A stretch of DNA of 64,000 nucleotides from Spirochaetia bacterium (lineage in GTDB: Bacteria; Spirochaetota; Spirochaetia; CADAEX01), in assembly GCA_045606105.1 (NCBI GenBank), contig JAZURI010000001.1, positions 32,001 to 96,000 on the forward strand. Reading direction: 5' to 3'. A program made the position numbers and the translations under genes. Positions within the stretch are counted from its first letter, which is position 1. Every line of letters starts with the position of its first letter. Under the pieces are notes generated by a model, which ran no database searches, was not told where the DNA came from, and saw nothing but the letters and a program-made list of their open reading frames with translations. Positions 32,856-51,803 of the stretch are shown one piece after another.

Positions 32856-33572
32856 ATGAATATGGAAAACAAGAAAGCTGTTGTGGCTGGTGCCGTGGTG
32901 CTGGCATTGGGAATCCTTTTTGCAGGAATTTCCCTTACATTCGGAATTAAAGCATTGAAGGCAGATCAGAGAACCGTAACTGTACGCGGATTGTCAGAAC
33001 GGGAATTTGCTGCGGATATGGCAGCATGGCCGGTAACCTTTACCGTAAGCGGCAACGAGCTCCCTACTCTCCGTCAGGAAATCGTGACCAAGACCGATAT
33101 CATCATCGATTTTCTCAAGGCTCACGGCATCAAGGATGGGGAATACACCGTGAAGGAGCCTGCTATCACCGATATCACAGCCAATCCTTATATGGATCAG
33201 AACCAGAAGCGGTATAAATATTTTGCAAAGAACGTGATTTTTGTCCGTTCATCCGATATTGCGGCTGTAAACTCTGCCTTGACCGATTCTATCAACCTGA
33301 TGGACAGCGGAATTGCACTGTCCAACGAGTACGGCAGCCAGATTGAGTACCTTTTTACAGCTCTCAATGACATAAAGCCTGAGATGATTGCTGAAGCCAC
33401 CAGAAACGCACGGGAGGCAGCGGAGCAGTTTGCACTGGATTCGGGAAGCCGGGTAGGCAAGATCAAGAAGGCGACCCAGGGGCTTTTTTCCATTGAGGAT
33501 GCAGCACCGGGATTGCCTGAGAAAAAGAGCGTCCGGGTGGTCACCACCGTGGAATATATCCTTACAGACTGA
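32856..33572 (+). CDS. SIMPL (DUF541) domain protein
   Basis: RTVTVRGLSE, KPEMIAEA..NAR.AA.QFA.DS, A.QG.FSI, RVVTTVEY. Confidence 0.85.
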   Translation: MNMENKKAVVAGAVVLALGILFAGISLTFGIKALKADQRTVTVRGLSEREFAADMAAWPVTFTVSGNELPTLRQEIVTKTDIIIDFLKAHGIKDGEYTVKEPAITDITANPYMDQNQKRYKYFAKNVIFVRSSDIAAVNSALTDSINLMDSGIALSNEYGSQIEYLFTALNDIKPEMIAEATRNAREAAEQFALDSGSRVGKIKKATQGLFSIEDAAPGLPEKKSVRVVTTVEYILTD

Positions 33573-33630
33573 TGTAAAGAAAAACATTGACAATTGCTTT
33601 ATAAAGATGTATCCCTGATTTACAGGGAGA

Positions 33631-33897
33631 ATGACTATGGCAATGACAATGGTAAATTTCAGGATGGATTCCGATCTGAAACAGGAAATGGAGTCTGTCT
33701 GCAAGGAGATGGGATTATCAATGACTACAGCATTCACTATTTTTGCCAGAAAGGTCAGCCGTGAAAAAAGGATACCTTTTGAAATCGCAGTAGATCCTTT
33801 TTATTCAGAAGTAAACATAAACTACCTGAAAAAGCTTGTTTCAGATATCGATTCAGGAAAAGCAGTTTTTACCGAGCACGATATTATTGAGAACTGA
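33631..33897 (+). CDS. RelB/DinJ-family antitoxin
   Basis: VNFRMD..LK, MGLSMTTAF.IFA, RIPFEI..DPFYSE.N. Confidence 0.88.
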   Translation: MTMAMTMVNFRMDSDLKQEMESVCKEMGLSMTTAFTIFARKVSREKRIPFEIAVDPFYSEVNINYLKKLVSDIDSGKAVFTEHDIIEN

Positions 33898-33908
33898 GCA
33901 TGAAGCTG

Positions 33909-34319
33909 TCAGAAGTTGATTTCCTGATTTCCAAATTTTAATTTTTTCGGTGTATAGGTATTATAGTCAAAAGTAAGATAATAAGTGGTTCTGATCATTG
34001 CTCCAAATCCATTCTGTGCATCTACATGTCCTTTTGCCGTTATTGTTCCGTCAGAATTTTTAGATGTGAACTCATATTGGTCAAAAGAGCAGAATTTTGC
34101 TGTTGTAGGTGCTACCAGAAGTTCTTTTATTAATGTTTCACAGTAGTACTTACACATGAATATTTCATCCTTTGTTAAATATGTATGGTCATTTATTTTT
34201 CCGACAAAAGATTTATTTTTATAGATTGGTTCTGTATTAACTAAAACTTCATCTATTTTCTGTTCTACAACCCATACCATAAGGTCATTTTTACTTTCTA
34301 TATTTTTATCTTTAATCAA
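33909..34319 (-). CDS. AT-rich hypothetical protein, probably a 5'-damaged remnant
   Basis: TTG start without SD; frame closes at TAG 34368-34370; L.APTTAKF and VDAQNGFGA motif. Confidence 0.45.
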   Translation of the reverse strand: MIKDKNIESKNDLMVWVVEQKIDEVLVNTEPIYKNKSFVGKINDHTYLTKDEIFMCKYYCETLIKELLVAPTTAKFCSFDQYEFTSKNSDGTITAKGHVDAQNGFGAMIRTTYYLTFDYNTYTPKKLKFGNQEINF

Positions 34320-34543
34320 ATAACTTTTGTTGTCATTTATTGTAAAGTTGCATGAAGAATAAGAAAACTATTTCTTACTTGTAATTCATTATAAATATCT
34401 ATAAATAAAAGAAATAATTCTATTCATCCTTTATAATTCTCATGAACATTAAAAACTGTTAAAAATGAAGAAAAAAGCCTTTTAAACCCCTGTTTAACCC
34501 CCTTTTTTGACCAATCTTGTTACCTAAACTGTTACCCTAAAAT

Positions 34544-34575
34544 TTTAAAGAGAGTACCGGTTTCCCGGCACCCTC
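34544..34575 (-). terminator. Hairpin terminator after dam
   Basis: Minus strand GAGGGTGCCGG-GAAA-CCGGTACTCTC followed by TTT. Confidence 0.6.
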
Positions 34576-35358
34576 TTAAATCTGATAATTAGCAGTCAAT
34601 ACCTCAATCTTTTCCTTTGGGTTCCCAGACTGAATTGACATAGGCTTTGCCATTCTTATTTCTATCTGATACCAACCATTTTTCTTGGTATATTCTCGAA
34701 GCAGCGGATGTCTAAAGGAACTAAGAAGAAACTTCCCTGAAATAGTTTCCAATAATTGAAGAAGCCGCTCAAAGTCCTCTTTCGAATATCCATCGTAATG
34801 TCCCTGGTCAGTATCCGGATACGGTGGGTCTAAATAAAAGAATGTTTCGGGTCTGTCTCTTGAACTTATTATTTTAAGAGCGTCATAACATTCTATCTGA
34901 ACATTTTGAAGCCTGATAGCCAAATCTTCTGAAAATTGCTCACGCTTGTTTTTAAGCTTTTTAGTTGTAGTTCCGCCCACATCATAACCCCATCCAGCTT
35001 CCCAACTGGCTCCAAAAGAAGCGTTGGCTAAAACCCAAACGGCCCAGGCTCTTTTAATTTTGTCAAACATCTCTGGATTCTCGTTTATTACTCGTGCCTG
35101 GTGATGAAGTCTCCGGCTGTGCAGGCTTATCATAATTTCTTGAGCGAGTAACGAGAAATGATTCTGCAGCACCTCGTAAAAATTGATAAGTTCTCCATTC
35201 GTGTCGTTGATGATTTCCGAAGCGGAAGGTTCCTTCCTGAAAAACACAGCGCCGCCCCCGATAAATGGTTCGCAGTAAATTTCATGTTTTGGCATTAAGC
35301 TGATAATTTTCTGTGCCAGCTGTTGTTTGCCCCCATAGTAAGTAATTGGTGTCTTCAT
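34576..35358 (-). CDS. D12-class DNA adenine methyltransferase
   Basis: YYGGK, EPFIGGG, INDTNG.LINFY, YLDPPY; AAGGAGG SD. Confidence 0.92.
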   Translation of the reverse strand: MKTPITYYGGKQQLAQKIISLMPKHEIYCEPFIGGGAVFFRKEPSASEIINDTNGELINFYEVLQNHFSLLAQEIMISLHSRRLHHQARVINENPEMFDKIKRAWAVWVLANASFGASWEAGWGYDVGGTTTKKLKNKREQFSEDLAIRLQNVQIECYDALKIISSRDRPETFFYLDPPYPDTDQGHYDGYSKEDFERLLQLLETISGKFLLSSFRHPLLREYTKKNGWYQIEIRMAKPMSIQSGNPKEKIEVLTANYQI

Positions 35359-35384
35359 TGTTTTCCTCCTTTAGATAATGAAGA

Positions 35385-35491
35385 ACCGCACCGATAAATT
35401 AATTACGGATGATAGCAGTTTTACTGCAGGTGGTGCTACACCTGGCCGGGGGGGGGCGTCCCCTCGACCTGTCATCCGTTTATCTTGCGGT
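35385..35491 (-). ncRNA. Candidate structured RNA (four-way junction on a long stem) in the dam leader
   Basis: Nested complementary segments ACCGCA/TGCGGT, GATAAA/TTTATC, CGGATGA/TCATCCG enclosing three hairpins; strand inferred from context. Confidence 0.6.
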
Positions 35492-35496
35492 ACCAG

Positions 35497-36160
35497 TTAT
35501 TCTTTTTCATTTCCAAATATCCTTTTTTTTGCAATATCGAAGTATTTCTCTTGAATCTCATAACCTATAAACTTGCGATTCAGCACCTTGGCAGCTACAC
35601 CTGTGGTACCACTCCCCATAAAGCAATCCAGGACAACATCGTTTTCTGTTGTACCGTCTTGGATAAGTTTTTTAATAAGGTTGACAGGCTTCTGGGTAGG
35701 ATGGACTTTCTCTCCATCTGTTTTTTTAGCCCCAGAAGAAAACCCAGGAATATCCATAATAACATTACTCCCCCCCCCTCGAAATTTTTGATTTTCCAGT
35801 TGCAAAAATAATAAACTCATGAGCATAGCTATAATAAGAGCCGGGTCCGGCTCCTTTGTCCCAGACTAACAAGTTTTTGATTGTAAGAAACTCATTGATG
35901 ATGGGGTAATAGAACGCATAACCCCGCCAGTCAGTAAAAAAGTAAAAGGAATAATCTGCAGAAAGAACCCTTTTTATTTCTTTCATCAGAGCTTTAAAAA
36001 AATAGGCACTGATATTCAGGTCCGCAAATTCATAGGAACTGCCGTTGTGACTAAGACCTTGGAAGTAAGGAGGGTCTGTAATAATGCAGTTGACGCCGTG
36101 ATCCGGCAGTTTCTTTATTCCTTCGAGGCAATCCGTGTTATAAATTTTTACATTTTCCAT
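35497..36160 (-). pseudogene. Beta-class N4/N6 DNA methyltransferase split by a frameshift at a G9 tract (35770-35778)
   Basis: ORF 35765-36160 has TDPPY; ORF 35497-35826 has HPTQKP and DCFMGSGTT; G8 would join them into 220 aa. Confidence 0.85.
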
Positions 36161-36161
36161 A

Positions 36162-36189
36162 TTGACTTCCTTTAAAAATATGTTATTAT
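36162..36189 (+). promoter_or_regulatory. sigma70 promoter antisense to the late operon
   Basis: TTGACT (36162-67), 16 nt spacer, TGn-TATTAT (36184-89). Confidence 0.6.
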
Positions 36190-36195
36190 TAATTT

Positions 36196-36271
36196 AGAAG
36201 TGGAAACCAAGGAAGCGATGTATTCCCGCCTATGGAATATGGAGCTAAACATTATGGTTTCCATTTTTTTT
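36196..36271 (+). ncRNA. Candidate ~75-nt small RNA overlapping the 3' end of MuF-toxin
   Basis: Downstream of the promoter; closing stem AAGTGGAAACCA/TGGTTTCCATTT, inner hairpin TATTCC-N7-GGAATA, ends in T8. Confidence 0.55.
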
Positions 36272-37733
36272 GCTTTATCGTTTGCCGTGAAATATTATAA
36301 ATTTTGTTCTGCCAGTCTAAAATTACTTCTTTAACAGGGGTCATAATAACCCCTTTATACAATCCATTAATAATTTCATCGGAAGTTGTTTCTGGCAAGG
36401 CTTTTATATATACAATTCTTGCATGTTGAGCTCGACCAGCCCGCTGAATATCATTAGCAATAGAAGTTGTTTTAGGGTTTTTCATTTCACCAATTTGGTT
36501 GTCAATTAACATGTCTGGATTCTTAACTTTAAAAAGGTTACCAGCAGGCAGCATATAAACCTTGTGTCCATTATCTGCTAATCTCCTTGCATTATCATAT
36601 TCTATTTTTGCATCTGTAGGTTCTTTTGCTTCATCCCAGTTTGTGGCTAGTTTTATATAGCCCCCTGTTTTTGATGTATAGTCCAATTTATACCCTTTAA
36701 GTATTTCTTTCTGATAATTTTTCATGTCAAGGTCATATGCCTCCTGAAGAACATCTTTCCAGATTCCAAAATCCTCTGCTCTTTTAATCATAGACGGAGT
36801 AAGTTGCCACCAACTTTCTTTTTCTACAGGATTACCACCGAATCCCTCCTGTGGTTTAAATTTGCGGAACCGCTTCATAGGAGGTTCCTCAACAATTACA
36901 TCTTTGGCAACCTGGGAACTATAAATTCCACGGAATGTTGTCCTGCAATTAAAATGATAAGGTGGGTATCCATACCGATCCCAGAAAGGATGGTCTGCAG
37001 GGAGAGCCAACCCATTAGTCTCCTGAAAAAGCTCGTGGCAGATATGGCTCTGGCGGTCATCATTGATAAAGAAAAGCTGTATAGCCACCGGTTTTGTATC
37101 TTCAAACTCGGTGAGCTTGCCGGAAGTATATATGGTGTTCATATTTGTCCGGTAAACAGTCTCCCAATAGCCCGGTCTTATCGGATCAATATTATCGGTG
37201 TCTATGAGATTTTTTAAATCGCTCCAGCTCTCTGAAATTCCTTTGCCTTTCTCCACTGCATCTATAAGCTGCTGCTGCACCTGGTATACATAATCTGCCT
37301 TGGTCTGGTTTGCAACGCAAAAAGCTCTAAACCGCAGCTTTGGTTCAAGCTCTTCCCATTCTTCTTGGGTAACAGGAATTTGACCTCTTAAGAAATCAAG
37401 AGATTTATCAAATACGACTTCATCAACATCTGCAGAGTTGATTTTTTTAGCCGCATGATTCATTCCGAGCAAGAACGCTCCGGCAAAGGTTATTTCTGAA
37501 TCTTCTACCAATTTGTTGTCGGATGCGATATCGATAGAATAGGCTTCTTCTATCTTTTCTTTTGCAGGAGCTTTGCCATCTGGTGAAAGATGCTTTAAAT
37601 AGTTTTTTAACTCTTCTGCAACAGCCTTATAAAAACGTTTTTTTGCAGCGGTGACAAAGTTCTCAAACTCCTGGCTTTTTATGACTTCCTCTGCAAAGCT
37701 TGTGTCGCTTAAGAGAAGTTCAGAGCTTTTTTT
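36252..37733 (-). CDS. MuF (gp30) minor head protein with C-terminal PD-(D/E)xK CdiA_C-like nuclease; no canonical start in the first 74 codons
   Basis: ETVYRTN, DDRQS..C, HPFW...PP.HFNCR (MuF); KNPDMLID...GEMKNP (nuclease); frame open from 37733. Confidence 0.85.
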   Translation of the reverse strand, partial: KKSSELLLSDTSFAEEVIKSQEFENFVTAAKKRFYKAVAEELKNYLKHLSPDGKAPAKEKIEEAYSIDIASDNKLVEDSEITFAGAFLLGMNHAAKKINSADVDEVVFDKSLDFLRGQIPVTQEEWEELEPKLRFRAFCVANQTKADYVYQVQQQLIDAVEKGKGISESWSDLKNLIDTDNIDPIRPGYWETVYRTNMNTIYTSGKLTEFEDTKPVAIQLFFINDDRQSHICHELFQETNGLALPADHPFWDRYGYPPYHFNCRTTFRGIYSSQVAKDVIVEEPPMKRFRKFKPQEGFGGNPVEKESWWQLTPSMIKRAEDFGIWKDVLQEAYDLDMKNYQKEILKGYKLDYTSKTGGYIKLATNWDEAKEPTDAKIEYDNARRLADNGHKVYMLPAGNLFKVKNPDMLIDNQIGEMKNPKTTSIANDIQRAGRAQHARIVYIKALPETTSDEIINGLYKGVIMTPVKEVILDWQNKIYNISRQTIKQKKWKP

Positions 37734-38929
37734 TTACCAGAATCAGAAAGCATAAAACCCTGGGGCTGTGTCTCTTTCTTGAAAGTGTCATCATCATCGG
37801 CAGGCTGTGGCAATCCGTAGTCTGTATAAAGGGCCTGCTTGGACACAGGAACACCTCTGTCTATTGCCTGCATAAGCTGGTCAAAGCTGGCCTTCTTCTC
37901 GACATTGAACTCAAACTTTGGAGCTATGACATCGGGGCCAAAGTTAAGCTCTACAGTCCAGTCAATTACATGCTGGAGGACGTTCTGCAGCTCCAGGGCA
38001 ATTCCCTTGCAGTCCTCATATAAAAGATCTGCCTGGACTTCTCCCAGGGCAAGGCTGCCGCCGTCTGTCTTGCTGGTGGCAATAGCCTGGCCAGTCAGAC
38101 CGTAACAGATTTGTGTGTCGCAGGCGTCGACCAGGGAAGCAAATCCAATAAGATCTCCTGCCATCCCGACTTCCTTGACATCCCGGATATTTGCCACAGC
38201 TGATGCGGAGCCGGACTCCACACCCAGCAGCATGCGGGCTATATCGTCGGCGCGTTTCTGGATTGAATTCTCATCTCCGTCTGCCTCGAACAGAGCGATG
38301 ATTGATTTGACGCTAAACTTCTCGGTGGCCTGGAGCCAGAACTCGTAGCCGGCCTGCTTGAACATCCATGCCCAGTACACGCAGCGGAGGACAGATGTAC
38401 CATAAGGGTTCTCGTCGTCCGGGTCGTGCTGGAAACGGAGCCACTTATAGTCCTCGTCCAGCTTCTTGCGGTCGCCTATGCCGCCCCAGAAAAGTTCCCA
38501 GTCCGCATTGAAGTAAAAGCGGTCAGGTTTCCTGGTGATGATATTCTCCGGTATCCACTTGCCGGAATTTAAAGCCGGATCTGCCCAGACAAGTTCAGAG
38601 ATGGAAAAACCGTAGTCGAGGGCTGCGAGCATTCTTTTCTCTTTTTTGTACATGTTTTGGAACAGGGGGATATTCCTGATAAAATCATATACTTTGTCAG
38701 GGCAATCTTCCGGCTGATTTATAGCGTGTGGGAAATTGAGGGCAGTGGTCTTGAGCTTGTTCAGGAGAGATTTGATCCTACCGTCTGTCCTCATCTTGCG
38801 GTAGGTCTCGTATGACTCGACAGTTCCCGAGACTATGTCATCAGGGTTTGGCATATAGTTGAGGAAAGACCCCAGCTTGTTGTCGTTTATGACCTGGCTG
38901 GTCATTGTTTTTTTGTCCGCTTTTTTCAT
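37709..38929 (-). CDS. Portal protein, Mu gp29/DUF935-like
   Basis: D.RIKSLL, ALDYGFS..E.VW, NPYG.S.LR..YW.W.FK, GQ, SLALGEVQ. Confidence 0.88.
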   Translation of the reverse strand: MKKADKKTMTSQVINDNKLGSFLNYMPNPDDIVSGTVESYETYRKMRTDGRIKSLLNKLKTTALNFPHAINQPEDCPDKVYDFIRNIPLFQNMYKKEKRMLAALDYGFSISELVWADPALNSGKWIPENIITRKPDRFYFNADWELFWGGIGDRKKLDEDYKWLRFQHDPDDENPYGTSVLRCVYWAWMFKQAGYEFWLQATEKFSVKSIIALFEADGDENSIQKRADDIARMLLGVESGSASAVANIRDVKEVGMAGDLIGFASLVDACDTQICYGLTGQAIATSKTDGGSLALGEVQADLLYEDCKGIALELQNVLQHVIDWTVELNFGPDVIAPKFEFNVEKKASFDQLMQAIDRGVPVSKQALYTDYGLPQPADDDDTFKKETQPQGFMLSDSGKKKALNFS

Positions 38930-40479
38930 ATTCTCGCTCTCCTGATAATATTCTTTGACTTAGGATGATGGTGGTGCCGGCTTACTGCGACTGTACCGGT
39001 ACCGGCTTTTTCGGCTGCCTTGATTGCCAGCCACAAGCCGTCACACAGGTCATCGTATGCGCCCAGCGGAAATTCTGTAAGCTGGGTCTCTATATTGCTG
39101 GTTCCTTTCTCGGGGAACCGTACAAAGCCGTTCTGTATAAGCATGGAGTAGGACCTGATGCGCATCTCCTTTGATGCGCCGCCGGTACCTACTTTTATAA
39201 TAGGAAGATAAACGCTCCGCTCTATGCCCAGCTTCTGGATATAATTGCCATAGATTCCAGAGAACGCCACATCCTCCCATGCTATTGCGCCGAACCGGTA
39301 AGCCCGGTGCAGCATTATCATCTGATCCACAGTCCTCTGCTCGCTGCAGGCTTCTCCGAAACAAGGCAGCACATAGATGATGCCGGTTTCTTTGTCCCTG
39401 GCAATAGGCACCTCTGCAGTACCGTCGTGCTTGCCTGTCGCAGGGTCGACACCCAGGAAGAACCGCAGGTTCCCTTTGGGTGGCAGGCTGCTGTAACGGT
39501 TGGCATCAATCCATTCCTGTTGGATGATACGCTCCTCATCGGCCAGCGGCTCGTTCATATATTCTGTGCTGAACGCTGCGACACCGATGGTCTTCTTTTT
39601 CTCCTCAAGGGATTCCAGATCCCAGTATTCCGGCCACAGTGGTGTGCCGTCTGGGCGTATACATCCCAGGCGCACGGCAATCCACTTGACCAGGGTACCA
39701 GCCTCCAGCTCACGGCAGAGCCTGGATATAGGGTCGTCGTTGTGGAATATGGTGTTGACCCAGATGATGAATGCTTTCTTGCCCAGATTGAATACAACCC
39801 GTTTAAGCCATCGGTATATCTTGTTCCTCTGGGTAGGTGAGTTTACAGCATCATCCTTCAGAAGGTCGTCTGCTACAATCAGATCAGGGCGGTACTGGCG
39901 GTATCTGGTACCTCGCATGGAGGCACCGGAACCTTTAGACTGCAGGCAGGTGCCGTTTGCAAGCTCAAGCCTCTTGTTGGTCCATACTTTTCCCTGGAGC
40001 TGTCCGAAGTCCTCTGCAAGGCGCTCGTTCTCCTCCAGCTCAAGCTTGATATTGTTAAGGTTCTCGCTGGCAGCGTCACCGCTTGCGCCTATAAGAAGCA
40101 CATATCTTGCGCGGCCGGTCAGGACACACCACAGCACATAAGCAAATGACCAGCGGACTGTCTTACCATGCTCTCTCGGCTCGATGAACATGGCTCCTGA
40201 TATCTTTGTGGTTGCCCGGAGCAGCGGCCAGTATTTCTCCCGGACAAAATATCTCAGGTGCTGGGCGTTAGCTGCAGAGAGGCTGCGGCTGTTGGCCACA
40301 TCATATAGCACCTGCTGGTATTCCGCAGGATCCTCAAAGAAGTAGTCTGATAAATAATACTGGCAGAAAAAGCCGAAGTCCTTGGCCGCTTTCTCTTTGC
40401 GCCGCGCAGCTTCAGAGGCTTTTTCAATATCGTTAAAACTGCCATTTAACAGCTCGGCTAATGCCGATTTATCAGCCAT
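38926..40479 (-). CDS. Terminase large subunit
   Basis: PREHGKT, RPDLIVADD, LWPE, F.TEYMNEP, GVDPA, DDLCDG. Confidence 0.92.
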   Translation of the reverse strand: MADKSALAELLNGSFNDIEKASEAARRKEKAAKDFGFFCQYYLSDYFFEDPAEYQQVLYDVANSRSLSAANAQHLRYFVREKYWPLLRATTKISGAMFIEPREHGKTVRWSFAYVLWCVLTGRARYVLLIGASGDAASENLNNIKLELEENERLAEDFGQLQGKVWTNKRLELANGTCLQSKGSGASMRGTRYRQYRPDLIVADDLLKDDAVNSPTQRNKIYRWLKRVVFNLGKKAFIIWVNTIFHNDDPISRLCRELEAGTLVKWIAVRLGCIRPDGTPLWPEYWDLESLEEKKKTIGVAAFSTEYMNEPLADEERIIQQEWIDANRYSSLPPKGNLRFFLGVDPATGKHDGTAEVPIARDKETGIIYVLPCFGEACSEQRTVDQMIMLHRAYRFGAIAWEDVAFSGIYGNYIQKLGIERSVYLPIIKVGTGGASKEMRIRSYSMLIQNGFVRFPEKGTSNIETQLTEFPLGAYDDLCDGLWLAIKAAEKAGTGTVAVSRHHHHPKSKNIIRRARI

Positions 40480-41002
40480 TCTCTTCCTTCGCCCTCATGT
40501 TCTTGACAATCTCTAGAATGGTCTTGAGCACGTCAGGATGCTGGTCTTTCAGCTCCTTGTTGAGCTCGGCTATGAAGTCTGCCTTTGCGGACTCATAGCC
40601 CTTGTTATATTTAAGCCGCTCTGCGGCAAGCTTGGTCTGCGATGTGGCAACCGCTGTAACCAGCTTCGAGATATCGCTGACCGATTTGAGTTCTATGCCG
40701 TCGATGTTCTTGATCTCCGACAGGAACTTGGTGGCGATTACGGCATTGATGGCCTCGATGACCTCGGTGCCGGGATTGTTCTTGATAGCTTCGGTAATGG
40801 CCTTGGCCTCTTCGTAGGCCAGGTTGTAATCTTTGGCAGCCTCTGCAGCGGTCTTGACAGTCCTCCGCACCGCCTCCCTGGATATATCTATGCCGTCCTG
40901 TCTGAGGATGGCCTCAATCTGTTTGCATGTGGTTCCTTTCTTGTAGAGCCTGGTTATGCGCTCGACAAGCCCCAGCAGTTCTGCTTTTGACTTTCTACCC
41001 AT
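40472..41002 (-). CDS. Mu gp27/DUF3486-like terminase small subunit
   Basis: MGRKSK start, HTH-like ISREAVRR, directly upstream of terL. Confidence 0.78.
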   Translation of the reverse strand: MGRKSKAELLGLVERITRLYKKGTTCKQIEAILRQDGIDISREAVRRTVKTAAEAAKDYNLAYEEAKAITEAIKNNPGTEVIEAINAVIATKFLSEIKNIDGIELKSVSDISKLVTAVATSQTKLAAERLKYNKGYESAKADFIAELNKELKDQHPDVLKTILEIVKNMRAKEENG

Positions 41003-46111: not shown

Positions 46112-46247
46112 TTTTACTCTCTCTTTTCGGCACAATTATCTCTGCTATCTTGGCGGCAGTTACATTCAACGCCTTCTTTATATATCTCTTGCTTCTGAGT
46201 TTCTTCCTCAGTTCCTCAATTTCCTGCTCTGTTAAACATTCAGTCAT
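46083..46247 (-). CDS. Small basic hypothetical protein
   Basis: ATG overlaps the lipase stop; fills the gap to B. Confidence 0.45.
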   Translation of the reverse strand: MTECLTEQEIEELRKKLRSKRYIKKALNVTAAKIAEIIVPKRESKNERADKAKA

Positions 46248-46851
46248 ACAGTTCTCCCTTGCCATATCCTATGTGGTATTTTTTCACCTTGAAGATCTCA
46301 ATCAGGCTGAAGCGCCTGCCAACCCAGTGGCTGTTCACATGACAGAATCCGGGCAGAGGCGGAGTGTATGGCACAATATCGTTCGGCTGCCGATACTGGA
46401 CAGCACAGCAGCACTGGACTATGTACTCTGCGGTCTTCTTGGAACCACACACCTTAGGAGCTCCGAATGTGAACACATCGGCCTTCCGTCCGGTTCTCCA
46501 GAACAGATCCTCCGCAGCCAGAAGCGCTATTGCGCCGCCCAGGCTCCAGCCCGCAATTATAGGCTTGGCATCAGGATGCTTAAGACATTCCTGGATTATG
46601 TCATGGATCACCTGGTCGTTTCCGGACTTCCACAGCATGCCAAAACCGCCGTGGACAACCATGCAGGAAGTCTGGTTCTTATACAGCTTCCGGGCAAACC
46701 GGAAGTCATTCCAATAGTCCCGCCAGCTCATGCTACCTTGGAAGAGCAGGGCGGGCCGACCCCCGATCTCTGTCACGCAGTAGTCAAGATCAGCTCCAAC
46801 AGTCTTATAATCTGCGTGTTTTATAAGGCTGAAGAGTTCGTTCTGTCTCAT
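46240..46851 (-). CDS. Class 3 lipase-like alpha/beta hydrolase
   Basis: FQGS, VHGGF, GWSLGG nucleophile, TFGAPKV, DIVP, C-terminal H. Confidence 0.85.
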   Translation of the reverse strand: MRQNELFSLIKHADYKTVGADLDYCVTEIGGRPALLFQGSMSWRDYWNDFRFARKLYKNQTSCMVVHGGFGMLWKSGNDQVIHDIIQECLKHPDAKPIIAGWSLGGAIALLAAEDLFWRTGRKADVFTFGAPKVCGSKKTAEYIVQCCCAVQYRQPNDIVPYTPPLPGFCHVNSHWVGRRFSLIEIFKVKKYHIGYGKGELYD

Positions 46852-51281: not shown

Positions 51282-51803
51282 ATGGATTCATTCACATCTT
51301 CCTATGACAAACTGTCAAATGTACTTAAGAATAAAATAGAAATAGCTCAGGTAGGAAGCTCTTTTTCGGCCCAGGAATGGGTTGCTCTGTGGGATACAGG
51401 GGCTACAAACTCTGTCATAACACAGAAAGTGGTCGATGCCCTCGGCCTGCAGCCGGTCGGTCAGGTACCCTGCAGCACTCCCCAGGGGAGCTATAATGCT
51501 TGGGTCTATTATATCGATGTGAAGCTGCCGAGCTCTGTGATCATCCCCAAGCTGCAGGTGACTTTAGGACAGCCTTTTGGATGCGATATCCTTGTCGGCA
51601 TGGATATAATAGGAAGAGGCGATTTTGCTGTGTCTAACTTTGAGGGCAGGACTGTATTTACTTTCCGCACCCCTTCTCTGATGACTTTCGACTTTGTCAA
51701 TAAATCATATCTTGAGCCCATCGTAAAGCCACCCACACCGGGGCGCAACTCACCATGCCCATGCGGCAGCGGCAAAAAATACAAGCAGTGCTGCGGTCGA
51801 TAA
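51282..51803 (+). CDS. Retropepsin-like aspartyl protease with C-terminal SEC-C motif
   Basis: [34 protein letters not shown]. Confidence 0.88.

Follow-up and report, generated by a model that had tools for sequence, protein, structure and literature searches.

A predicted convergent small-RNA gene beside the CdiA-CT 1026b-like domain of a phage MuF protein: a candidate RNA antidote in a Mu-like prophage

Introduction

According to Jamet et al. 2017 (PMC5576092), MuF polymorphic toxins are prophage-encoded proteins in which a MuF N-terminus is joined to a variable C-terminal toxin domain that is swapped between similar phages. The same study reports an open reading frame (ORF) downstream of 89.4% of 191 MuF toxin genes and lists the CdiA-2 1026b-type domain (cd13442) among the MuF toxin domains. 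The 1026b toxin, the C-terminal part of CdiA (CdiA-CT) of Burkholderia pseudomallei 1026b, is described in the review PMC9086364 as a PD-(D/E)xK tRNase whose cleavage site is in the acceptor stem of tRNA-Ala. It acts on one bound tRNA as a monomer and is neutralised by the protein CdiI, which contacts its active site. Here we describe a stretch of 64,000 nucleotides (nt) from a Spirochaetia genome (assembly GCA_045606105.1, contig JAZURI010000001.1, positions 32,001 to 96,000; hereafter the window), in which a Mu-like prophage carries a MuF gene that ends in a domain of this kind. In the short gap behind this gene lies a predicted small-RNA gene that runs in the opposite direction.

The MuF domain of the window resembles the toxin of the CdiA-CT/CdiI 1026b complex (PDB 4G6V) in fold and family. 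It differs from it in being part of a phage head protein, whereas CdiA-CT is delivered by a type V secretion protein, and in being paired with a predicted RNA rather than with a CdiI-like protein. When the profiles are aligned, the canonical E-x-K of the family of the MuF domain is replaced by D-N-Y in the 1026b toxin. The difference from other MuF polymorphic toxins lies in the immunity slot, which in this family is occupied by a convergent non-coding unit, with no conserved ORF seen there.

RNA antitoxins are known from other toxin-antitoxin systems. The logic proposed here, in which a ribonuclease-type toxin is inactivated by a bound non-coding RNA, is that of the type III systems ToxIN, CptIN and TenpIN; the antitoxins of these systems are tandem repeat arrays located upstream of the toxin gene, encoded on the same strand and cut by the toxin. 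The window RNA is instead a single non-repetitive hairpin, downstream and convergent, and the fold family of the toxin is different. No tandem repeats were found in positions 35400-37800, and the repeat array of a type III system is lacking in this interval, where the RNA is downstream and convergent.

Prophages also carry type I pairs with a convergent antitoxin RNA that overlaps the 3′-end of the toxin gene, such as txpA/RatA and bsrG/SR4 of Bacillus subtilis, and RalR/RalA. The likeness to these pairs includes the convergent RNA gene, the overlapping 3′-ends, the prophage location, and an RNA promoter and intrinsic terminator of its own. Type I toxins, with the exception of RalR, are small membrane peptides and the RNA acts on their message, whereas the domain in question belongs to a virion protein of 420-500 amino acids (aa). 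The toxin candidate of the window is a 169-aa soluble alpha/beta nuclease domain in a 419-aa protein, and not a small hydrophobic peptide. Further differences from type I pairs are that the overlap with the coding sequence is of a few codons and that orphan RNA genes exist without a toxin gene.

Full-text literature searches turned up neither a polymorphic toxin with an RNA as its immunity factor nor a small RNA next to a MuF toxin. As far as the searchable text of the literature goes, the immunity factor of polymorphic toxin systems is always a protein. None of the three ingredients (the toxin family, MuF toxins, RNA antitoxins) is new in itself; what would be new is their combination and the behaviour of the unit as a cassette and as an orphan.

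A predicted small-RNA gene in the gap behind MuF

The features at the centre of this analysis are the following.

36252-37511, minus strand: MuF gene with C-terminal candidate toxin domain, 419 aa from TTG at 37511, stop codon at 36252-36254
36255-36761, minus strand: PD-(D/E)xK nuclease-type domain, CdiA-CT 1026b-like, 169 aa, motif NPD...GEMK
36162-36189, plus strand: small-RNA promoter TTGACT-N16-TGtTATTAT with extended -10, a sigma-70-type match
36196-36271, plus strand: predicted small RNA of about 76 nt, long hairpin with loop CGCCUAU and U8 end; the 5′-end is deduced from the promoter

The gap between the MuF ORF and the methylase ORF that follows it spans positions 36161-36251 (91 nt). 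An earlier note, made from the letters of this DNA alone, had stated that the gap leaves no room for an immunity ORF and that it holds a plus-strand promoter (TTGACT-N16-TGnTATTAT) and a hairpin unit of about 75 nt with a 7-nt loop and a T8 end lying over the last toxin codons. Every one of these elements was recovered at its expected place. No small immunity ORF lies directly downstream of the window MuF gene: the gap yields one 26-aa ORF in the sense direction and one 44-aa ORF on the plus strand, and neither is retained in two orphan copies of the unit, from genomes G006 and G001, that are described below. Both were rejected as hidden peptides. The 44-aa ORF (36200-36334) traverses the terminator, and in the G006 copy its frame is closed after 3 codons; the 26-aa ORF spans the gap, and neither G006 nor G001 has an equivalent of it.

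The promoter is among three sites with 10/12 matched positions in a scan of positions 33000-41000, and it is the only one of the three with the TG of an extended -10. On the opposite strand, its -35 hexamer coincides in part with the region of the methylase gene that contains the ribosome-binding site (RBS) and the start. The small RNA would start about 7 nt past the promoter. The RNA (plus strand, 36196-36272) folds into a single long hairpin, in which a closing stem of 13 pairs is topped by an apical stem of 8 pairs and a 7-nt loop, at dG -25.4 kcal/mol (z -4.2; 0/200 shuffles were as stable). The complementary minus strand folds less stably, with dG -18.9 and z -3.2. The T8 terminator tract occupies positions 36264-36271. 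The final codons of MuF, TGG AAA CCA TAA, are complementary to the 3′ arm of the closing stem. Together with the U-tract, this arm covers about 20 nt of coding sequence, comprising the stop, the four codons at the end of the gene and the K-rich tail.

The unit is present in a single copy in its own 1.46-Mb genome, and a comparison with the phage GenBank collection gave no DNA match. Comparison with Rfam 15 produced no match at or near the window unit at E ≤10 and none in ten related loci at E ≤1. The window RNA is not a tRNA. The earlier note had offered a tRNA-sized decoy as one possible mode of action. The apical hairpin (36222-36236, plus strand; UUCC-CGCCUAU-GGAA) shares 13/15 positions with the tRNA-Arg(CCU) of this genome, in the anticodon arm. 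This resemblance, the best among the 39 own tRNAs, scored 20 versus 18.1 ± 2.3 in shuffles and was rejected as evidence of tRNA mimicry, so that the decoy version of the proposal found no significant support. Complementarity of the small RNA to the same 39 tRNAs was unremarkable.

The near-consensus promoter, the structured RNA of about 76 nt and the intrinsic terminator point to a genuine, independently transcribed small-RNA gene in the gap. The case against mere coincidence is a comparative one and is made below from the related loci. A chance arrangement, or a sense-strand terminator or mRNA-stabilising hairpin accompanied by a fortuitous promoter in AT-rich DNA, could be imagined from the total of promoter-like sites in the 8-kb scan, which does not exceed that of shuffles (16 versus 12.9 ± 2.8), from a local GC content of 0.37-0.40, and from the overlap of the -35 hexamer with the RBS region of the methylase gene, which could account for its conservation in close relatives. 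Such an origin is nevertheless highly improbable: the U-run follows the hairpin on the plus strand only, the promoter is retained in the G001 orphan although the methylase start is gone, and, as shown below, the layout recurs in loci that cannot be aligned with each other, also with another type of promoter, and far more often than the background would give.

The C-terminal domain of the MuF protein

The N-terminal part of the protein matches PF04233 (Phage_Mu_F) over residues 77-193 with E 5.6e-11 in Pfam, and the protein also matches phrog_220, "minor head protein and DNA pilot", with E 7.5e-25. The gene belongs to a packaging module, with the Mu portal gene and the genes of the large and small terminase subunits as neighbours and with MuA, MuB, Gam, Mor and GemA in the same arm.

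The C-terminus includes the motif stretch ...VKNPDMLIDNQIGEMK..., and its NPD...GEMK motif is composed of Pro82, Asp83, Glu92 and Lys94. In an 11-sequence alignment P82 and K94 are invariant and D83 is nearly so; all three are nearly invariant among 26 sequences. Relatives of the last 169 residues are few: a search found 37 representatives at E ≤0.001 among 1.84 billion, most of them MuF C-termini. P0004, the closest relative, carries PF18451 (CdiA_C) in its precomputed annotation. The sole convincing match of the family profile to a protein of solved structure was PDB 4g6v_A, the CdiA-CT of B. pseudomallei 1026b (E 6.5e-6). The AF2 model of the domain (pLDDT 89.5), when compared by Foldseek, gave 4g6v_A as its only significant match (E 5.8e-6, probability 1.00, TM 0.63 over the target).

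By profile and predicted structure, the domain is a remote member of the CdiA-CT 1026b nuclease family. This agrees with the earlier reading of the C-terminus as a PD-(D/E)xK domain of the CdiA_C type, for which the same note had proposed a profile search with the last 130 aa. The substrate and the toxicity of the MuF domain are presumed.

Conservation of the unit in related loci

Related loci were collected by scans with an alignment of the toxin domain, for which a closer set of sequences replaced a first alignment that was too diverse. A scan of viral contigs with a single protein as the query found no relative, and neither did a scan with an alignment of the P0016 group. The toxin-domain scans found 6 metagenome loci, 2 genome loci (Treponemataceae or Treponema metagenome-assembled genomes) and 7 viral loci, with 36-48% amino acid identity. 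Directly after the stop codon, an A-run and a long hairpin were present in 15/15 of these loci (11 distinct), which come from three collections. On the opposite strand, 80-110 nt farther on, there is TTGAC(A/G/T) or TTGCAT, a spacer of 16-17 nt and a TATAAT-like hexamer, often with TG. The promoter regular expression matched 8/11 distinct loci as well as the window and the G006 orphan (L004), that is, 10/13 of the sequences examined; in L008, L009 and L010 the -10 hexamer is GATATT and the promoter was read by eye. The predicted RNAs of the related loci measure 67-111 nt and all end in a long hairpin and a U-run, and several have an additional 5′ hairpin.

More distant branches share the layout. 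L022-L027 have it with promoters of sigma-70 type. In L028-L036, 6/6 distinct sequences have TAnnTTTG at the corresponding position, a box that we take to be the Bacteroidota -7 consensus. Judged from these loci, the type of promoter varies between branches while the unit persists. The RNA subgroups cannot be aligned with each other. Among 401 genomes of the class, 9 carry the toxin domain, and the unit was seen by eye in 8/9 of the loci; several of the other assignments of the unit as present were also made by eye. The earlier note had made its proposal depend on a promoter and structure conserved in homologues, and both were found across distant loci.

In L007-L020 the unit is the last feature of the element, and the genes beyond it are unrelated host genes (GH1, ABC permease, MCP/CheR, AMP-binding enzyme, BspA repeats). 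Other MuF genes lie within an operon, with the head protease gene next in L085, L110 and L072 and a methylase gene next in L066 and the window. The idea that the unit is a feature of prophage ends was rejected, since it is also found at these mid-operon positions (in L110 and L066 by the detector, in L085 by eye, and in the window).

Ten loci (L008-L012, L019, L020, L043, L056 and L057) have one or two GTTACC boxes located 10-40 nt upstream of the -35 of the RNA promoter, and the same ten have a conserved TAAAAC(G/A)GG...TTTTAT farther out, between the RNA promoter and the prophage end. These boxes and the conserved stretch may serve as operators or be bound by the transposase.

MuF genes with other C-termini

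A scan with the MuF N-terminus gave 80 viral loci, 77 of which include the stop codon; 38 match the hidden Markov model of the toxin domain and 39 do not. Removal of duplicates and of loci with <150 nt downstream (20/77) left 57 loci, 27 with the domain and 30 without it. A full unit was defined as a match to the promoter regular expression with a terminator 45-130 nt on. The counts were as follows.

Antisense terminator abutting the stop codon: 20/27 with the domain, 5/30 without
Sense terminator: 2/27 with the domain, 2/30 without
Adjoining co-directional ORF of at least 40 aa: 8/27 with the domain, 23/30 without
Full promoter-terminator unit abutting the stop codon: 17/27 with the domain, 4/30 without

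In the 20 loci of the terminator scan the unit is located between -15 and +12 nt relative to the stop codon. Farther downstream, the background of full units was 9 in 38.3 kb and 6 in 50.6 kb (15 in 88.9 kb, about 0.17/kb); against this background, the 17/27 full units at the stop codon are a further argument against a chance origin. The terminator scan missed 7 loci with the domain, and 5 of these have a unit with a weaker U-run by eye.

The statement of the earlier note that MuF toxins are usually followed by an immunity gene describes the loci with other C-termini well (23/30) and most loci with this domain poorly (8/27). The adjoining ORFs also differ in their starts, which are mostly TTG or GTG beside the toxin domain and mostly an ATG overlapping the stop codon in the controls. 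Genome G045 has two MuF genes with other C-terminal domains, and each is followed by an ORF whose ATG overlaps the stop codon, the classic immunity arrangement. By this comparison, the unit occupies the slot where MuF genes with other C-termini have a small ORF. A search of 15 small prophage ORFs, limited to known Pfam families, detected no known immunity family.

The full units among the controls all belong to loci with the LPD3 C-terminus (PF18798), namely L075, L082, L089 and L090. Their RNAs, of another type than those beside the toxin domain, are clearly homologous to each other, with 20 predicted pairs in the four sequences, 6 of them showing double compensatory changes. LPD3 is a second MuF C-terminus that has an RNA as its partner. 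The LPD3-type convergent RNAs are located as follows.

L075, 3738-3804, minus strand of the locus
L082, 3732-3795, minus strand of the locus
L089, 3732-3801, minus strand of the locus
L090, 3729-3798, minus strand of the locus

The invariant stretches of this RNA are GCAGACUCC and AGCCAAUAC. Its loop, AUUGGUU, could pair with AGCCAAUAC.

Apparent exchange of the domain together with the RNA

Five loci (L040, L043, L044, L056 and L057) have MuF proteins with N-terminal identities of 88-94% and C-terminal identities of 23-37%. The DNA of L040, L043, L056 and L057 was compared along its length. Up to 540 nt before the stop codon it is mostly 72-98% identical, with one 50-nt block at 60%. From -540 to +75, where the toxin domain and the RNA-coding part of the unit are located, the identity is 22-56%. 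It rises to 67-96% between +75 and about +270, on the promoter side, as far as the end of the prophage. Past about +270 are the host flanks, which are divergent.

A pairwise comparison of the hairpin side and the promoter side over 41 distinct loci gave the following values.

Same backbone, different C-terminus (14 pairs): stop-proximal 70 nt, median z 3.1, 29% >5; next 70 nt, median z 11.5, 86% >5
Different backbone, similar C-terminus (6 pairs): stop-proximal 70 nt, median z 17.5, 4/6 >5; next 70 nt, median z 2.5, 2/6 >5

The hairpin side therefore tracks the similarity of the C-termini and the promoter side tracks the phage backbone. This pattern suggests that the transcribed part of the RNA gene and the toxin domain are exchanged as one module. 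It is not decisive, because linkage of adjoining DNA can yield the same pattern: the 70 nt next to the stop codon directly adjoin the toxin domain, and the co-variation of hairpin and domain could be mere physical linkage.

The weight given to linkage also bears on the view that the small RNA has nothing to do with the toxin, being a lysogen-expressed regulator of host or phage that hitch-hikes behind MuF with the variable cassette or an insulating terminator against inward transcription. Physical linkage alone would account for the co-variation; the LPD3-type MuF, which has no known toxin activity, has an analogous RNA; the unit is often followed directly by the prophage end, where independently transcribed accessory genes are commonly found; and the retention of orphans would suit any RNA that benefits the host. 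We nonetheless consider an RNA of this sort rather improbable. The unit stays within -15 to +12 nt of the stop codon in the 20 loci mentioned above and is kept mid-operon too, its transcribed part is replaced along with the toxin domain while the promoter stays, which is unexpected for a regulator with a fixed target, and MuF genes with other toxin domains lack the unit even farther downstream (6 units in 50.6 kb).

Orphan and truncated copies

Two genomes of the same genus as that of the window carry the unit as an orphan. In G006, the last 36 codons of the MuF-toxin gene (61% identical) lie between chromosomal genes and are accompanied by a complete unit (TTGACT-N16-TGgTATATT, hairpin and U8), with 11 methylase codons and a fragment of the Dam gene as neighbours. 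In G001, about 40 nt of the MuF end remain together with a complete unit (TTGACT-N16-TGcTATAGT), the hairpin of which has dG -27.2 kcal/mol and z -3.95. Searches at E ≤1e-5 found no toxin domain in G001 and nothing but the 36-codon relic in G006. The sites in G006, G001 and the window have no flanking sequence in common. The G001 orphan is bracketed by a 41-nt direct repeat (L129, 1381-1421 and 1547-1587; 83% identical, 166 nt apart) that is seemingly derived from the 3′-end of the MuF gene and may be what remains of a tandem array of module copies.

In the consensus structure of the RNAs from the window, G006 and G001, double compensatory changes affect 8 of the 25 pairs. All three RNAs retain the closing stem and the apical motif CCCnGCUAnGG, and the middle stem is rewritten with its pairing preserved. 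The covariance model of the window-type RNA, R1, scores the window RNA at E 1.6e-21. In 141 genomes, strong matches to R1 were found in 3 only, namely the window's own and the two orphan holders, which are its training set; three further matches at E 0.003-0.01 are at chance level. Other remnants were found in G144 (L118, 1318-1968) and G196 (L121), both of them 5′-truncated; they have lost the MuF domain and kept the toxin domain, in a frame of 216-222 aa, and the RNA unit.

Since intact RNA genes persist amid destroyed neighbours, a function in trans can be argued for. The orphans also bear on the possibility that the RNA is a cis-antisense regulator similar to those of type I systems. It would pair with the 3′ region of a MuF message that reads through, or its promoter would collide with late transcription, and the lysogen would make less of the toxin-bearing MuF and of the downstream gene products. 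The convergent layout, with the 3′-end of the RNA over the stop codon and the last codons, fits this idea, and read-through of the MuF message, on which a more complete overlap would depend, is likely because sense terminators are present in just 2/27 loci with the toxin domain. RalR/RalA provides a precedent for a prophage nuclease toxin under the control of a small RNA, and for an antisense RNA encoded in cis, swapping with the toxin domain would be automatic. Yet the two orphans are intact without a toxin gene to regulate, and the apical loop motif is conserved while the stems change, although a purely cis-complementary RNA does not need it. Such a regulator would moreover give no protection against toxin protein brought by virions or already made during assembly, and repression during the lytic cycle would be costly, MuF being required for head assembly. 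We regard antisense control as unlikely, and the purely antisense version of the earlier note is weakened by the two orphans and by an overlap limited to the last few codons.

Proposed role of the RNA

Comparison of the loci shows the predicted RNA as the variable partner of the MuF PD-(D/E)xK domain: the two appear to be inherited together, swapped together and left behind together in decayed prophages. The explanation that we favour, with a probability of about one half, is that the RNA acts in trans as a neutraliser of the toxin domain. It would be made from its own promoter of constitutive type and would end at the intrinsic terminator abutting the MuF stop codon. It would then bind the nuclease, most likely as a non-cleaved or product-like RNA ligand. 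In this way it would protect the producing cell while heads are assembled, and it would protect lysogens and orphan holders from toxin injected by virions of related phages.

Direct inhibition of the protein is favoured for several reasons. The toxin would arrive as a protein inside virions, which control at the level of the message cannot counter; orphans exist without a cognate message; the loop motif is conserved; and the transcribed part changes along with the domain. A more far-reaching version, to which we give less credence and which we put forward tentatively, describes a class of phage-head polymorphic toxins with RNA immunity. In this class each nuclease variant would be blocked by its own hairpin RNA, maybe a substrate mimic, toxin and RNA would be swapped as a cassette, orphans would give cheap protection to their holders, and a second pairing of this kind would be found in the LPD3-type MuF with its RNA. 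What probability remains after the neutraliser, the antisense regulator, the hitch-hiking RNA and chance was assigned to other readings.

Were the RNA to neutralise the domain, it may be the first antidote made of RNA that is known for such toxins, and it would link RNA antitoxins with polymorphic toxin-immunity cassettes. It would represent a specific inhibitor of about 75 nt for a tRNase-type enzyme, it would account for the seemingly missing immunity genes of part of the MuF toxins, and the short orphan RNA genes would be a form of bacterial immunity that is invisible to protein-based annotation. The naturally swapped cassettes on the near-identical backbones of L040, L043, L056 and L057 offer a ready comparison of specificity.

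Several observations weigh against the neutraliser, besides the linkage discussed above. The match of PF18451 to the window domain (E 1.5e-4, 22.3 bits) is under the 26.6-bit cut-off. The full-unit detector missed 10/27 loci with the toxin domain, and by eye no clear unit was found in L068 and L070 (2/27) or in L122 (1/9 genome loci). An ORF is found just past the unit in L085 (142 aa) and L110 (176 aa) and is a potential protein immunity gene; a protein immunity gene may also be located elsewhere in the prophage. The loci belong to related phages, and their counts overstate independence. LPD3 is not known as a toxin, so the presence of an RNA behind the LPD3-type MuF speaks against a strict pairing of toxin and antidote, and the RNA may have a role other than that of an antidote. 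Finally, the window prophage may be decaying, because its MuF gene lacks an ordinary start codon near the portal gene and its methylase gene is split.

Prophage context and neighbouring genes

By gene content the prophage is of the Mu-like transposable type and has two divergent arms. The minus-strand arm encodes a Ner-like regulator, MuA, MuB, Gam, GemA, Mor, both terminase subunits, the portal protein and MuF, and the plus-strand arm encodes the repressor, head protease, major head protein, tape measure protein and tail proteins. The genes in the neighbourhood of the predicted RNA are all on the minus strand.

37709-38929, minus strand: Mu-type portal gene, PF06074 with E 3.4e-56
35765-36160, minus strand: N6/N4 DNA methylase, N-terminal part, one half of PF01555; directly downstream of MuF, with the operon direction shared
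35497-35826, minus strand: N6/N4 DNA methylase, second part, the other half of PF01555
34576-35358, minus strand: Dam-class methylase

The N6/N4 methylase (35497-36160, minus strand) consists of two overlapping ORFs of 131 aa and 109 aa, one with positions 1-109 of PF01555 and the other with positions 145-221, and is either frameshifted or dependent on slippage. Both methylases, the MuF gene and the RNA unit are in a low-GC island (34000-38000) with GC 0.37-0.40, versus about 0.52 in the remaining prophage arm; the island is compatible with a later acquisition through recombination.

Upstream, the MuF frame is open to position 37733 (a 493-aa open frame), and an A9 run at 37727-37735 connects the end of the portal ORF to it. 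The 74 codons from the A9 run onwards include no ATG, GTG or TTG and are similar to the N-terminal extension of homologues. In the relatives L024, L042 and L052 there are single open frames of 834-994 aa. A portal-MuF fusion through a shift at the A9 run may be a route by which MuF is produced; alternatively, the run may be phase-variable or an assembly error.

Two other genes are unusual passengers for a Mu-like phage. A class-3 lipase-like gene (46240-46851, minus strand) is located between MuA and MuB, and an ORF with an aspartyl-protease domain and a SEC-C motif (51282-51803, plus strand) is the first of the structural arm.

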